A stretch of DNA of 13,224 nt, taken from a virus. The stretch lies in the UHGV virus genome UHGV-0142834. One strand, given 5' to 3'. The stretch's first letter is position 1. Each line of letters starts with the position of its first letter. Of this stretch, positions 270 to 10,795 are shown piece after piece. Position numbers and translations under genes: made by a program. Under the pieces are notes generated by a model. The model worked only from the letters and a program-made list of their open reading frames with translations. It had not been told where the DNA came from and searched no databases.

Positions 270-1448
270 ATGGCTATAAGCGACACAAAACTGCGTACTA
301 TTTATGGTAAACCATATTCGGGCCCACAAGAAGTGGCTGATGCCGATGGCCTCAGCGTACGAATTTCACCGAAGGGGGTCATCCAGTTCCAGTACCGCTA
401 TCGCTGGCATGGCAAGCCTAATCGACTTGGGCTTGGTCGATACCCATCCCTGTCTTTGAAGGATGCCAGACAGATCACTGCTGACTTGCGAAAGCTCTAT
501 TTCTCAGGAACGGATCCACGCACCTATTTTGAAGAGAAGGTGGAGAACTCCATGACGGTCGCCCAGTGTCTCGACTACTGGTTCGACAACTACGTCTCTA
601 CAACTCTCAGAGAAAAGACCCAGGCACTTTACCGATCAACGGTTATGAAGCGCATGCATGACGCCTTTCCTAATCGTCCGGCATCTTCTATCACGGTTAA
701 GCAATGGGTTGACCTGCTTACCGAAGAAGAAAGAGATAATCCACGCCGAGCAAGGCAGGTGCTAAGTCAACTAAGATCAGCAATAAGTTGGTGCATGCGG
801 CGTCAGTTGATAGATAGTTGCGCAATTATGAGCATCCAACCAAGGGACTTCGGCTCCCGCGCTGAGGTAGGGGATCGGGTACTGTCGTATCACGAACTGG
901 CTAAGATTTGGCTTGCTATTGAAAGAAGCCGTGCGTCTACGTCAAATAAGCTACTTCATCAGATGCTTATGCTGTGGGGGGCGAGGCTCTCAGAGCTTAG
1001 GCTGGCAACAAAGACAGAATTTGACCTGCTGGACAACGTATGGACCGTACCGAAAGAGCATAGCAAGATGGGTAATGTTATCCGTCGTCCAATCTTCGAA
1101 CAAATTAAGCCTTTTCTCGAAAAGGCCATGACAACGTACAATGATGTTCTTTTCCCTGGAGAAGACATAAACAAACCGATCAGCATCGCTGCAGCCAACC
1201 GATTCGTAAATAGAATAAGGGGAGGGATGGATCTAGGTTACTGGCGAACACATGATTTCAGAAGAACGCTTGTTACACGTCTGTCCGAGATGAATGTCGA
1301 GCCTCATGTTACTGAGCGAATGCTCGGTCATGAACTTGGCGGGATAATGTCCGTGTACAATAAACACGACTGGATAGAGGCTCAGCGCAAAGCTTATGAG
1401 CTTCACGCTGATAAATTGTTCTGGCACATCAGGAGCATTTCTGGTTAA
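270..1448 (+). CDS. int: Tyrosine site-specific integrase, P4-type (N-terminal arm-binding-like domain plus C-terminal catalytic domain)
   Basis: 392 aa ORF with ATG start. N-terminus (GKPYS..DGLSVRISPKG..FQYRYRWHGK..LGLGRYPSLSLKDAR) resembles the P4/IntS-type integrase N-domain. C-terminus has tyrosine recombinase motifs (HDFRRT, LGHELGG..SVYNKHDW with the catalytic Tyr). Confidence 0.9.
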   Translation: MAISDTKLRTIYGKPYSGPQEVADADGLSVRISPKGVIQFQYRYRWHGKPNRLGLGRYPSLSLKDARQITADLRKLYFSGTDPRTYFEEKVENSMTVAQCLDYWFDNYVSTTLREKTQALYRSTVMKRMHDAFPNRPASSITVKQWVDLLTEEERDNPRRARQVLSQLRSAISWCMRRQLIDSCAIMSIQPRDFGSRAEVGDRVLSYHELAKIWLAIERSRASTSNKLLHQMLMLWGARLSELRLATKTEFDLLDNVWTVPKEHSKMGNVIRRPIFEQIKPFLEKAMTTYNDVLFPGEDINKPISIAAANRFVNRIRGGMDLGYWRTHDFRRTLVTRLSEMNVEPHVTERMLGHELGGIMSVYNKHDWIEAQRKAYELHADKLFWHIRSISG

Positions 1449-7717: not shown

Positions 7718-8341
7718 CTATGCGGCCTCGGAAGGAAGTCCAATCATCTTATTCAAATCTTCTACCCGTAAAGCAGGAAGTGCTGTACTTGCTTTATCTG
7801 CTTCTTTTGGTAGCAATTCTTTGCTTTCAGGCCAAACTTCAATAAGTCGCTTAACTGTTGTGACTGAGTTCAAAGCACCCCATACATTTGATTCGATATC
7901 CTTTTTCAAGGCTTCAAGGTTTTGTTGCAATGCGCAGATTTCATCAAACCTTTTTGTTATTTCGTGTTCTGCGTCAAACATGCACTTATCTTTGGTTGGA
8001 GTAGGGAGAAATATATCTTCGCCATTGCCGTCTTTCCCATATGAATGCCATCCAACCCTTCTGCCAGATACAGTCAGATAAATTGAAGTAGAACGAAAAT
8101 CGTATGAGTAAAATGAACATCCCATCTTTTCAAGTTCTTCACTTATAGCTACCAACTTGGATGATAACTGATCCACTTCCTCAGTTTTCTTTTTACCGCC
8201 AAACGCAATAACTCTGGCGTCAAGTGCAAGCTGGTTCTTTAACTTTGTTACTTCTTCAAGTTCAGTGAAAACCCCAGACTTAATTAAAGCGTTACGAGCG
8301 ATTTCCTCTTTCATTCTCGTAGTTAAGCGGATTGATGACAT
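7718..8341 (-). CDS. Hypothetical protein (207 aa), accessory cassette gene 1
   Basis: Start placed at the ATG 8341..8339 (MSSIRLTTRMKEE..) preceded by GAGAGG with a 7-nt spacer; the track's longer ORF would overlap the end of N. Coiled-coil-like N-terminal half; no motif I recognise. Confidence 0.65.
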   Translation of the reverse strand: MSSIRLTTRMKEEIARNALIKSGVFTELEEVTKLKNQLALDARVIAFGGKKKTEEVDQLSSKLVAISEELEKMGCSFYSYDFRSTSIYLTVSGRRVGWHSYGKDGNGEDIFLPTPTKDKCMFDAEHEITKRFDEICALQQNLEALKKDIESNVWGALNSVTTVKRLIEVWPESKELLPKEADKASTALPALRVEDLNKMIGLPSEAA

Positions 8342-8352
8342 ATTAATTCCTC

Positions 8353-8679
8353 TCAAATAAGTGGTTTGCTGCCTAATTTCATTTTCTGGCGACCAACACA
8401 AGTCACACCCATTTCACTGCGTGGCTTGCTGTACCATGTGCGCTGATTCTTGCGCTCAATACGTTGCAGGTTGCTTTCAATCTGTTCGTGGTATTCAGCC
8501 AGCACCGTAAGGTCTATCGGATTCAGTGCGCTTTCTACTCGTGATTTCGGTTTGCGATTCAGCGAGAGAATAGGGCGGTTAACTGGTTTTGCGCTTACCC
8601 CAACCAACAGGGGATTTGCTGCTTTCCATTGAGCCTGTTTCTCTGCGCGACGTTCGCGGCGGCGTGTTTGTGCATCCAT
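8353..8679 (-). CDS. N: Antitermination protein N (lambda N-like)
   Basis: Start at the ATG 8679..8677 with AGGAG at a 7-nt spacer. MDAQTRRRERRAEKQAQWKAANPLLVGVSAKPVNRPILSLNRKPKSRVESALNPIDLTVLAEYH.. matches the lambda N arginine-rich motif and most of the protein as I recall it; the C-terminus diverges. Confidence 0.9.
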   Translation of the reverse strand: MDAQTRRRERRAEKQAQWKAANPLLVGVSAKPVNRPILSLNRKPKSRVESALNPIDLTVLAEYHEQIESNLQRIERKNQRTWYSKPRSEMGVTCVGRQKMKLGSKPLI

Positions 8680-8851
8680 CTGGATTCTCCTGTCAGTTAG
8701 CTTTGGTGGTGTGGTAGGTGGGAGACCCATTTCGACCTGCTTCGGCCGACTTCAATTCGGCAATAGTTCCGCAGGCCTCGCCGCTTTACGTGCGACATAT
8801 TCCCATCCATGAACCCTTCACCACACCCCAAAGCCTTCTGCTTTGAATGCT

Positions 8852-8882
8852 GCCCTTCTTCAGGGCTTAATTTTTAAGAGCG
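8852..8882 (-). promoter_or_regulatory. nutL: nutL site (boxA CGCTCTTAA and boxB GCCCTGAAGAAGGGC on the minus strand)
   Basis: Plus strand reads gcccttcttcagggc (8852..8866) and ttaagagcg (8874..8882), the reverse complements of lambda nutL boxB and boxA. Located between pL and N. Confidence 0.85.
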
Positions 8883-8922
8883 TCACCTTCATGGTGGTCA
8901 GTGCGTCCTGCTGATGGCTTAA

Positions 8923-8963
8923 AATATACCTACAGGTAAAACCCATGTCTATACCTGTAGGTA
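8923..8963 (-). promoter_or_regulatory. pL-like promoter with two overlapping dyad operators (OL)
   Basis: On the minus strand: -35 TAGACA (8946..8951), 17-bp spacer, -10 TATATT (8923..8928). Dyad operators TACCTACAGGTA (8927..8938) and TACCTGTAGGTA (8952..8963) overlap the -10 and -35. A third, split dyad TTACCTG-N10-CAGGTAA lies at 8984..9007. Confidence 0.5.
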
Positions 8964-9020
8964 AATAAAATTGATGTGAGAGTTTACCTGCTTGAATTTT
9001 CAGGTAATTAATTTTTTGGA

Positions 9021-9049
9021 TTGATATAAAAAAGCCCGCTTTGCGGGCT
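9021..9049 (-). terminator. Intrinsic terminator ending the cI-membrane protein transcript
   Basis: GC hairpin AGCCCGC-ttt-GCGGGCT (9033..9049) followed on the minus strand by TTTTTTTATAT. It sits 12 nt downstream of the membrane-protein stop at 9061. Confidence 0.7.
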
Positions 9050-9060
9050 GAAAGGAGATG

Positions 9061-9357
9061 TCAGAAGCTATTTGGATTGCTTGGCCATTGCGGCAATTTT
9101 GATTCTACTGGGGTGTGTTTGGGTTTGAGTCCGTTTAAGTAGTCAAGGCGCTCAATGGCGCATTTATACATAGCAATCTGCTCTGATGACATGTCGTCGT
9201 ATGACATGCCTTTGAACTTTTTAATTATCGATTCTGCCTCATGTATAAGATTCTTCTTCCTCATGAGTTCAGCTGTATGCTTAGAGCTTACAGGAGATAA
9301 CTTTGCCCATATGAAGCAGATGATTACAACAGCGACTACTATGCCGGGTATAAACAT
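9061..9357 (-). CDS. Small single-pass membrane protein downstream of cI (rexB/sie slot); candidate superinfection-exclusion or defense protein
   Basis: ATG at 9357 gives a 98-aa product starting MFIPGIVVAVVIICFIWAKL (TM helix) followed by a charged soluble tail. An alternative TTG at 9375 overlaps the cI stop. Co-transcribed with cI and followed by a strong terminator. Confidence 0.6.
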   Translation of the reverse strand: MFIPGIVVAVVIICFIWAKLSPVSSKHTAELMRKKNLIHEAESIIKKFKGMSYDDMSSEQIAMYKCAIERLDYLNGLKPKHTPVESKLPQWPSNPNSF

Positions 9358-9371
9358 TTGCTGCTTTATCC

Positions 9372-10058
9372 TCAAACTTTTGGCAGATCGTCCTGGTCTA
9401 CGTACCTGGTGTGTTTCACAATAGCTGAAACAAAATGCATTTTATCAACTTCTTCAACAGGAAGAGTGATTGGGCGGTGATCACTGTTTATGCTACTAAA
9501 CTGATAATCACCGTCTCTTGTTTTGTTCATGATCTTTATCATGTTGTGACCGTCTTTGGTCCTTACAAAGACTTCATCACCTGGATGTACTGGCGTATTT
9601 GGTTCAATAACAACATATTCTCCTGACTGAATCCTTGGCCACATGCTGTCACCCTTAACCTTCAGACCGTAAGCATCTTTATCGCCGCTGTAGATGCTTA
9701 ACCAACCGGATCTGAATTCAATCATATCCACTGAGCCATCAACTCCCAAAACGGCTTCACCAATTACCGGAACAAAACCCGCACGAACGTTACCCGCAAA
9801 CTCAAGATGGTCCGTAGCTCCAGCTTTACCATCTGCAAGCATGTCCATCCATCCGCGTGGGAGATTAAAAGATTTTTCAATTAGTTCCATCATATCGTCA
9901 GCAATGCGTTTTTTTCCGCTTTTTCCTTCCGGATACAGCATTCTGGAAACGTATGATGGTTCCCTTTCTATTCGACGAGCCAACTCTGAGGCCTTTCCAT
10001 TACAGAATCGGTCTCTTATCTCTATCAGCCTTAGTCGTCTTTGTTCGTATTTATCCAT
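9372..10058 (-). CDS. cI: CI-type prophage repressor (N-terminal HTH, C-terminal LexA-like S24 peptidase domain)
   Basis: 228 aa, ATG at 10058. HTH region NGKASELARRIEREPSYVSRML. C-terminal KVKGDSMWPRIQSGEYVVIEP..GDEVFVRTKDGHNMIKIM contains the S24 Ser/Lys dyad context. Divergent from cro with operators between them. Confidence 0.9.
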   Translation of the reverse strand: MDKYEQRRLRLIEIRDRFCNGKASELARRIEREPSYVSRMLYPEGKSGKKRIADDMMELIEKSFNLPRGWMDMLADGKAGATDHLEFAGNVRAGFVPVIGEAVLGVDGSVDMIEFRSGWLSIYSGDKDAYGLKVKGDSMWPRIQSGEYVVIEPNTPVHPGDEVFVRTKDGHNMIKIMNKTRDGDYQFSSINSDHRPITLPVEEVDKMHFVSAIVKHTRYVDQDDLPKV

Positions 10059-10064
10059 GATTTA

Positions 10065-10134
10065 ATTCTATCTTTGATTACCTGCCGGTAAATAACCTAT
10101 GGGTATTGATTTGCTTTTTACCTACAGGTAAACT
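10065..10134. promoter_or_regulatory. OR region: divergent pRM/pR promoters with dyad operators
   Basis: Operators TTACCTGCCGGTAA (10078..10091) and TACCTACAGGTA (10119..10130), with a weaker AACCTATGGGTA between them. Candidate pR: -35 TTGATT (10106..10111), 17-bp spacer, -10 TAAACT (10129..10134). Candidate pRM -10 TAGAAT on the minus strand (10065..10070), only about 7 nt from the cI ATG with no Shine-Dalgarno sequence, implying a leaderless cI mRNA. Confidence 0.5.
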
Positions 10135-10166
10135 CATCTTATTCAACAACGGGAAGGAGATAGCAA

Positions 10167-10397
10167 ATGGAAGAACTCCGCTTGTATCTGAACTCCCTTT
10201 CACTGGAAGAGCAGAGAGAATTTGCCACCAAGTGCGGAACTTCTATCGGCTATTTGAGGAAAGCACTTAGCCGTAATCATGAATTGGGCGCAGCACTTTG
10301 TGTTCTGATTGAGAAGTTCAGCAATGGTGAAGTGACTCGCAAAGACCTTCATCCGGTTGATTGGGAAAGCATCTGGCCTGAATTAATGGCCGCTTAA
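10167..10397 (+). CDS. cro: Cro-like HTH transcriptional regulator
   Basis: 76 aa, ATG at 10167 with AGGAG at a 7-nt spacer. HTH-like segment EFATKCGTSIGYLRKALS. It is the first rightward gene, divergent from cI. Confidence 0.7.
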   Translation: MEELRLYLNSLSLEEQREFATKCGTSIGYLRKALSRNHELGAALCVLIEKFSNGEVTRKDLHPVDWESIWPELMAA

Positions 10398-10405
10398 GTT
10401 ATTAA

Positions 10406-10437
10406 CGCTCTTACACATCCCCGCCCTGAAAAAGGGC
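10406..10437 (+). promoter_or_regulatory. nutR: nutR site (boxA CGCTCTTAC, boxB GCCCTGAAAAAGGGC)
   Basis: cgctcttac at 10406..10414 and gccctgaaaaagggc at 10423..10437, matching lambda nutR as I recall it. Located between cro and cII. Confidence 0.85.
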
Positions 10438-10513
10438 ATTACCAGAAACAAATCTCTATGGTTTTGCGTTTCTTTGCGAAGCCAACTCTATCTAATCATT
10501 AAGGAAATTATCT

Positions 10514-10795
10514 ATGGGTACTATTGCAACTAAAAGCAAGAAAGCGGCTCGCATCGAGTCAGCCTTGCTGAACAAACTGGCACTGATGGGGCAGAAGACA
10601 TTCGCTCGAGCAATGGGGGTTCCTGAATATCAGGTAAGCCGATGGAAGAATGGTTTCTTCTCGCAGGTAAGCATGATGCTGGCTGTTCTGGAATACGGAA
10701 TCGAAGACGATGAAATGGCTGAGCTGACTAAGCGGCTTGCCAATTACCTGACAAAAGAAAAAGCCCCGAAGAACGGCGAATTCTTCGAGGCCTGA
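10514..10795 (+). CDS. cII: CII transcriptional activator (lambda CII-like)
   Basis: 93 aa. RIESALLNKLALMGQKTFARAMGVPEYQVSRWKNGFFSQVSMMLAVLEYGIEDDEMAELTKRLANYL parallels lambda CII RIESALLNKIAMLGTEKTAEAVGVDKSQISRWKRDWIPKFSMLLAVLEWGVVDDDMARLARQVAAIL. Confidence 0.85.
   Translation: MGTIATKSKKAARIESALLNKLALMGQKTFARAMGVPEYQVSRWKNGFFSQVSMMLAVLEYGIEDDEMAELTKRLANYLTKEKAPKNGEFFEA

Follow-up and report, generated by a model that had tools for sequence, protein, structure and literature searches.

Three described prophage proteins offer the closest comparisons for the gene considered here, which encodes a predicted membrane protein of 98 amino acids (aa) directly behind the cI repressor gene in a stretch of 13,224 nucleotides (nt) from UHGV virus genome UHGV-0142834 (hereafter the window). 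RexB of phage lambda is a multi-pass inner-membrane protein that acts together with RexA. SieA of phage P22 has 162–164 aa, three predicted transmembrane (TM) helices and an FxRYPxEAxxFNK motif (PMC10883804), and sieA is carried by 22 of 66 P22-like phages (Leavitt et al., PMC10883804). Gp15 of HK97 is described in PMC3594210, which summarises Cumby et al. 2012, as a small inner-membrane moron that excludes phages at genome entry. The window gene belongs to a family with two genomic homes, one equivalent to that of rexA and rexB and the other to that of sieA. We tentatively suggest that its product, anchored in the inner membrane of the lysogen, serves in exclusion or defence by an entry-type block.

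The open reading frame (ORF) is the last gene of a leftward cI–ORF–terminator unit in the immunity region, made up of the following elements.

9372–10058, minus strand: cI repressor gene, S24/LexA-type, 228 aa (Peptidase_S24, E=1.4e-17)
9373–9375, minus strand: alternative in-frame TTG start giving a 104-aa form and overlapping the cI stop (TTGA)
9369–9373, minus strand: GAGGA motif resembling a Shine–Dalgarno (SD) sequence, 11 nt upstream of the ATG
9061–9357, minus strand: gene for the predicted 98-aa membrane protein (ATG 9357–9355; stop 9061–9063)
9298–9354, minus strand: predicted N-terminal TM helix, codons 2–20 (FIPGIVVAVVIICFIWAKL), from hydropathy
9027–9049, minus strand: intrinsic terminator, AGCCCGC-AAA-GCGGGCT followed by T6

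The ORF lies on the same strand as cI with its ATG 14 nt past the cI stop. No terminator intervenes, and from the cI stop (9372) to the terminator (9049) no other ORF is conserved. The terminator stem–loop (9049–9033) has a 7-bp stem with six G-C pairs and a 3-nt loop, followed by T6, and folds at -12.6 kcal/mol (z=-2.9 against shuffles). An initial annotation of this DNA had placed a single-pass membrane protein immediately downstream of cI, on the same strand and ahead of a strong intrinsic terminator, and in all these respects it was right. The terminator would end a cI–ORF transcript before OL/PL. As operators (OL and OR) are found on both sides, the ORF is inside the immunity region, in the slot that holds rexA and rexB in lambda, where the initial annotation had also put it.

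The same annotation gave the ORF as 98–104 aa within 9061–9375. The ORF exists and the 98-aa form is supported, but the TTG at 9375 is probably not the main start, the ATG at 9357 being the likely one. This choice is favoured by the phrog_10450 profile (98 positions, full-length), which aligns to residues 7–104 of the 104-aa form; by the GenBank record of phage mEp043, in which the 98-aa form is annotated; by the full-length distant homologues that were checked, all of which begin M/V-[YFW]-[IL]-[PS] at the position equivalent to the ATG; by an in-frame stop two codons upstream of the homologue's start in the distant locus L034; and by the spacing of the GAGGA motif. A GAGGA also precedes the start of the homologue in a second distant locus, L035. 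The mEp043-type alleles (L001/L002/L020–L024/L031) have GTG in place of ATG. The 104-aa form is the one annotated in PV340537, and the upstream TTG, with its TTGA overlap with the cI stop, is retained in all close alleles.

Judged from sequence comparison, 9061–9357 is a conserved protein-coding gene under purifying selection. Close alleles were compared over 34 copies of a 400-nt region, namely 33 fetched loci and the window. Every one of the 34 has an intact ORF, the variable sites of which comprise 10 synonymous and 7 non-synonymous ones, and in the most divergent pair of close alleles the ratio of non-synonymous to synonymous differences (pN/pS) is 0.11 for the ORF versus 0.09 for cI. For the close alleles, the in-phase antisense frame scores just as well on the count of synonymous and non-synonymous sites. 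The antisense ORF (9155–9424) is, however, broken in the distant loci L034 and L035, in which the sense ORF is intact, and for this reason the sense frame was chosen. Between the window and these two loci, synonymous sites are saturated in all genes of the module (pS 0.63–0.86). Non-synonymous divergence (dN) is 0.48–0.61 for the ORF, against 0.09–0.10 for cI and 0.07–0.10 for cro, and the ORF protein thus evolves approximately 5–6 times faster than cI or Cro of the same module. At the nucleotide level, identity to L034 and L035 is 43–67% in the ORF and approximately 70–90% over most of cI and the OL core. Homologues at 28–43% identity nevertheless retain the length, the TM helix and the motifs. 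Divergence of the protein at this speed is as expected of a gene that meets other phages.

Homology and structure searches, for which the initial annotation had called, place the protein in a family without functional annotation. The match to phrog_10450 is full-length (E=4.6e-54), and the protein is 95.9% identical to mEp043_049 (JQ182734, AFM76460.1), deposited as ‘hypothetical’; both are the same gene as the window ORF, with allelic differences only. Searching with phmmer against 1.84 billion representative proteins gave 11 matches. Seven have 97–150 aa, 33–43% identity and the same architecture and are joined by a 55-aa fragment (E 6e-18 to 2e-6); the remaining three are larger proteins (350–1309 aa) that match short stretches of the query only. 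A profile search extended the family to approximately 26 protein clusters, none of them with a Pfam domain. The named sources are E. coli, E. fergusonii and Salmonella, the entries from these all being ‘hypothetical’, so that all named members are from the Enterobacteriaceae, and among these 26 clusters no non-prophage relatives of the family are known. Scans against Pfam, NCBIfam and PADLOC returned nothing above the curated cut-offs, with zero matches in PADLOC; at E<=1 Pfam-A gave a sub-threshold match to Chromo_MIT1 only, and NCBIfam likewise sub-threshold matches only. No functional work on this gene came to light when the literature was searched for the phage name, the accession numbers and the topic.

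The window-type allele occurs in 52 of 5426 complete E. coli genomes, always on the chromosome and always beside an S24 repressor gene, and the allele of the second subfamily, typified by phage N7, in 57 of the 5426. The annotation pipeline PGAP leaves the window-type gene unannotated in 50 of its 52 carriers and annotates it in two. The records of MB19 and MSB1_9D provide examples, in which PGAP shows the gap between N and the S24 repressor gene as empty.

The protein has one hydrophobic segment. The Kyte–Doolittle maximum over 19 residues, 2.53, falls at residues 2–20 of the 98-aa form and no other window exceeds 0.3. There are no lysines or arginines (K/R) ahead of this helix in any of 18 family members, and one to six in the 15 residues that follow. 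By the positive-inside rule, the lack of K/R before the helix and their presence after it, the predicted topology is N-out/C-in, which would place a conserved helical-hairpin domain of approximately 75 aa in the cytoplasm. The invariant residues of the family (K34, I38, E40, A41, M56, C66, A67, L71, W91 and P92) are all in this soluble domain, as are the near-invariant H27, Q60, R70, L74 and K78. The sequence of the TM segment varies among family members and every invariant residue is outside it, a pattern suggestive of a helix that serves as an anchor, with specificity residing in the hairpin domain. An AlphaFold2 model built on an 11-sequence alignment has a confidence score (pLDDT) of 83 and consists of a helix at 5–47 (TM segment and stalk), a second helix at 58–76 and an extended tail. 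Fold searches found generic helical hairpins only, and the family profile had no sequence match in the PDB at E<=10.

The family falls into two subfamilies, one located directly after cI and the other in P22-like prophages in the position of sieA. Behind cI, the proteins P0006 (L034) and P0007 (L035), each 42% identical in pairwise comparison, start 3–4 nt past the cI stop. The cI proteins of L034 and L035 are 84–85% identical to window cI and have the same operator type. Because synonymous sites are saturated throughout the modules of L034 and L035, the linkage between the ORF and cI is ancient. Other phages fill the same slot differently. Phage mEp506 (L045, PV340542.1, 3581–4711), whose cI is approximately 50% identical, has annotations for a HicA toxin, a HicB antitoxin and HicC between cI and N, and 933W-type Shiga toxin (Stx) phages (L046) have other ORFs there. 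This differing cargo marks the cI-to-N slot as a cargo hotspot.

Members of the second subfamily (in phage N7 and loci L038, L041, L042 and L043) are found between genes 16 and 9, adjoining ejection gene 16 in convergent orientation and often downstream of mnt, another repressor gene for lysogeny maintenance. This site beside gene 16 is the very one that sieA holds in P22, within immI; the window copy is in immC. No type-A SieA is present in the P22-like loci of the family. In N7 (L003, 2769–4249) and L041 (1951–3233) the homologue is last in an apparent mnt-led operon with two small ORFs, of which one has CxxC pairs and the other one TM helix; these are not obligatory partners, since in L042 the homologue directly follows mnt. 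In a further locus, L036, the homologue (P0009) stands beside a gp7-like gene and truncated injection-protein genes and next to type VI secretion system (T6SS) genes, and the locus looks like a prophage remnant.

From this arrangement we infer, as the initial annotation did, that the ORF is expressed in lysogens as part of a transcript shared with cI. In the window the ORF showed no separate promoter, and it appears to use the cI promoters PRM and PRE. Expression in lysogens is made more credible by the retention, in anciently diverged relatives, of the position 3–4 nt after cI, and by the other subfamily, which occupies the slot of sieA and frequently follows mnt. The homologue in L043 is preceded by a perfect TATAAT and a GGGAGGA SD sequence, at a place where the consensus scan called no promoter.

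Phages use both of these homes for genes expressed from the prophage, and exclusion is our preferred, if tentative, reading. In the lysogen the ORF would be transcribed from PRM with cI, and during establishment from PRE. Translation would begin at its own GAGGA/ATG or be coupled to termination of cI. The protein would then insert into the inner membrane N-out/C-in, leaving the conserved domain tethered to the cytoplasmic face, and would block a membrane-proximal early step of a superinfecting phage, most likely the formation or use of the DNA-entry conduit, as described for P22 SieA and HK97 gp15. In this way the lysogen would be protected against heteroimmune phages that cI immunity cannot stop. 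A broader form of the proposal, to which we would give rather less credence, is that the whole family is a hitherto unrecognised single-gene exclusion or defence system, a cytoplasmic helical hairpin tethered to the membrane, that replaces rexAB behind cI in lambdoid phages and sieA in P22-like ones, that blocks entry from the cytoplasmic face, and whose fast divergence tracks the entry proteins of competitors.

Several points weigh against exclusion at entry. The cargo-slot position shows when the gene is expressed, not how its product acts, and for no member of the family did the literature searches yield a phenotype or any record of expression or localisation. If the conserved domain is cytoplasmic, leaving next to nothing on the periplasmic side, it is harder to see how the protein could directly block a conduit in the periplasm. 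The topology is itself a prediction from hydropathy and the positive-inside rule, and the TTG start would put an arginine and a lysine at the N-terminus. The closest related prophage, moreover, already has a YebO/gp15-like moron.

Other readings have to be set beside this one. The protein could be a factor for lysogenic conversion or host physiology, not defence, which modulates a transporter, a protease like FtsH or a stress sensor, or which tunes maintenance or induction of the prophage. Many small membrane-anchored proteins regulate membrane partners, expression beside the maintenance repressors cI and mnt would suit such a role, and purifying selection on close alleles is comparable to that on cI. 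We nevertheless consider it unlikely: evolution 5–6 times faster than that of cI and cro is unusual for a protein with a conserved host partner to dock onto, members of the family are found in prophage cargo slots only (even L036, with its non-phage genes, having the look of a prophage remnant), and its second home is the classic exclusion slot of P22. Less probable again is an abortive-infection effector, in which the cytoplasmic domain would sense a product of the infecting phage, the TM helices would oligomerise and the membrane would be depolarised or permeabilised, with death of the cell before phage release and hence a Rex-like outcome from a single gene. The slot shared with lambda rexA and rexB, the probable expression in lysogens, a sensor-like cytoplasmic domain joined to a membrane helix and the rapid divergence of the protein would all fit. 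The poorly conserved TM segment, with every invariant residue outside it, speaks for an anchor and not a specific pore, and a lone helix that has no polar or charged residues to line a pore does little to indicate a channel. The effector would also have to work without a RexA-like partner, and the protein shows no similarity to RexB or to any PADLOC model.

A more doubtful alternative reverses the orientation, making the protein secreted or periplasm-facing by way of a cleavable signal peptide or of an N-in anchor made from the TTG start, so that the domain would act on incoming tail or ejection proteins; in function this overlaps with exclusion from the cytoplasmic face. Translation from the TTG, the form annotated in PV340537, would give MRIKQQ ahead of the hydrophobic core, and I-W-A|K looks like a cleavage site of the AxA type. 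Cleavage of a signal peptide is made unlikely by the uncharged n-region, by a hydrophobic stretch of 17–19 residues, which is long for a signal peptide, and by the lack of conservation of the AxA-like site; homologues leave no room for a charged n-region. The K/R distribution around the helix, uniform in 18 of 18 members, is likewise against it, as is a single invariant cysteine with no invariant disulphide partner. Finally, it is highly improbable that the ORF is no functional gene at all but a chance or decaying one in the spacer between cI and the terminator. Omission by PGAP from 50 of 52 RefSeq genomes and the equally good count in one antisense frame are what such an ORF would lead one to expect; intactness in 34 of 34 copies, the conservation of length, TM helix and motifs in distant homologues despite synonymous saturation, the broken antisense ORF in L034 and L035 and a confident AlphaFold2 model (pLDDT 83) are not.

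The window, 13.2 kb in all, corresponds to a lambdoid prophage's early region, with recombination and accessory genes on its minus strand. Besides the cI–ORF–terminator unit it contains the following.

270–1448, plus strand: int
7718–8401, minus strand: Nmad5-family gene (nucleotide modification associated domain 5; E=3e-70), matching phrog_1965, which has no annotated function
8353–8730, minus strand: lambda-type N (N36, E=2e-26)
8923–9007: OL/PL region, with TACC-N4-GGTA operators at 8927–8938 and 8952–8963
8951–8923, minus strand: PL-like promoter, overlapping OL
10065–10130: OR region, with three TACC-N4-GGTA operators at 10079–10090, 10094–10105 and 10119–10130
10092–10065, minus strand: PRM-like promoter, overlapping OR
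10167–10397, plus strand: cro, divergent from cI, the right-hand edge of the immunity module
10514–10795, plus strand: cII

Downstream of cII are a replication-initiator gene and then a gene for a DnaB-type helicase. The Nmad5-family gene is directly downstream of N, within the PL operon. The operator motif TACC-N4-GGTA has eight matches in the window where 1.9 are expected, a number reached in none of 200 shuffles. Between the terminator and both OL operators there is also a 24-bp inverted repeat, TTACCTG-N10-CAGGTAA (8984–9007), consisting of operator half-sites with a 10-nt spacer. L034 and L035, whose modules diverged long ago, have retained it. Perhaps it serves as a third OL operator of unusual spacing, or else a different regulator binds there.

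The immunity module (8850–10200) has 98.7% nucleotide identity to phage mEp043, and the cI protein is 100% identical to that of mEp043; no other sequenced phage has the module as a whole. The exact prophage of the window is absent from the complete E. coli genomes, among which the best match has 76% coverage, and the closest related prophage (E. coli MSB1_9D, NZ_LR890349.1, L044) is an HK97-like siphovirus. A scan of 8300–10600 with Rfam gave sub-threshold chance matches only and no known small RNA (sRNA). A defence-associated sRNA at a cI 3' end, svsR of prophage NC-SV in E. coli NC101, is reported in PMC12803456 (2026). No link between svsR and this module was established; NC101 is outside the 52 carrier genomes, and Rfam gives no match here.

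Part of this picture is already known, as the gene has been deposited as a hypothetical one (mEp043_049, phrog_10450) and a cargo gene behind cI is a classical idea. What is new here is the definition of the family, the finding that the sieA slot is its second home, the systematic lack of its annotation in RefSeq, and the long linkage to one repressor lineage combined with 5–6-fold faster protein evolution. The alleles searched, one from each subfamily, each occur in approximately 1% of complete E. coli genomes, and the cI-linked form is almost never annotated in RefSeq. The locus is an example of a cargo gene that has stayed with one repressor lineage past synonymous saturation, its protein evolving several times faster than the repressor. 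If the protein does exclude phages, it would be a compact, one-gene addition to the entry-blocking prophage proteins SieA, gp15, Imm and Cor, it would explain what occupies the sieA slot in some P22-like phages that have no sieA, and with 98 aa and ten invariant residues it would provide a simple handle on how phage DNA crosses the inner membrane. It is a well-defined candidate that is cheap to test rather than a surprise.

Set against the described systems, the protein resembles each in some respects and none in all. Like HK97 gp15 it is a small prophage cargo protein in which a very short N-terminus leads into a single TM helix, followed by a short helical stretch towards the C-terminus. Gp15, however, has 62 aa, is derived from host yebO and is encoded in the tail operon, where it has a promoter and a terminator to itself, and no homology was found between the two (hhalign probability 1.5%; no Pfam or NCBIfam YebO match for the window protein). 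The MSB1_9D prophage has a gene for a YebO-family, gp15-like moron (L044, 21432–21620) between its tail assembly chaperone and tape measure genes, and this prophage may therefore hold two small membrane cargo proteins. Of the features of a moron in the sense of Juhala and Hendrix, the window gene has the terminator but no detected promoter of its own.

The comparison with P22 SieA is one of position. One subfamily occupies the same place in the genome, and both proteins are prophage-borne, inner-membrane (by prediction here) and highly divergent between alleles. They differ in size and architecture, the window protein having 98 aa and one TM helix, and no homology to type-A SieA was detected, with an hhalign probability of 0.7% and the FxRYPxEAxxFNK motif absent from the family alignment. 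The window copy also differs in its setting, being in immC of a prophage whose closest relative is HK97-like.

The initial annotation had judged the protein unlike lambda RexB, and this holds: it is a one-gene, single-helix arrangement, the interval from the cI stop to the terminator has no gene for a RexA-like partner, and the Pfam, NCBIfam and PADLOC scans show no similarity to RexB. The likeness to RexB is instead one of genetic organization. Both genes lie directly downstream of cI, on the same strand and within the immunity region, on a PRM/PRE transcript (in the window, by our reading) that ends at a terminator before OL, and both products are inner-membrane proteins, that of the window by prediction.

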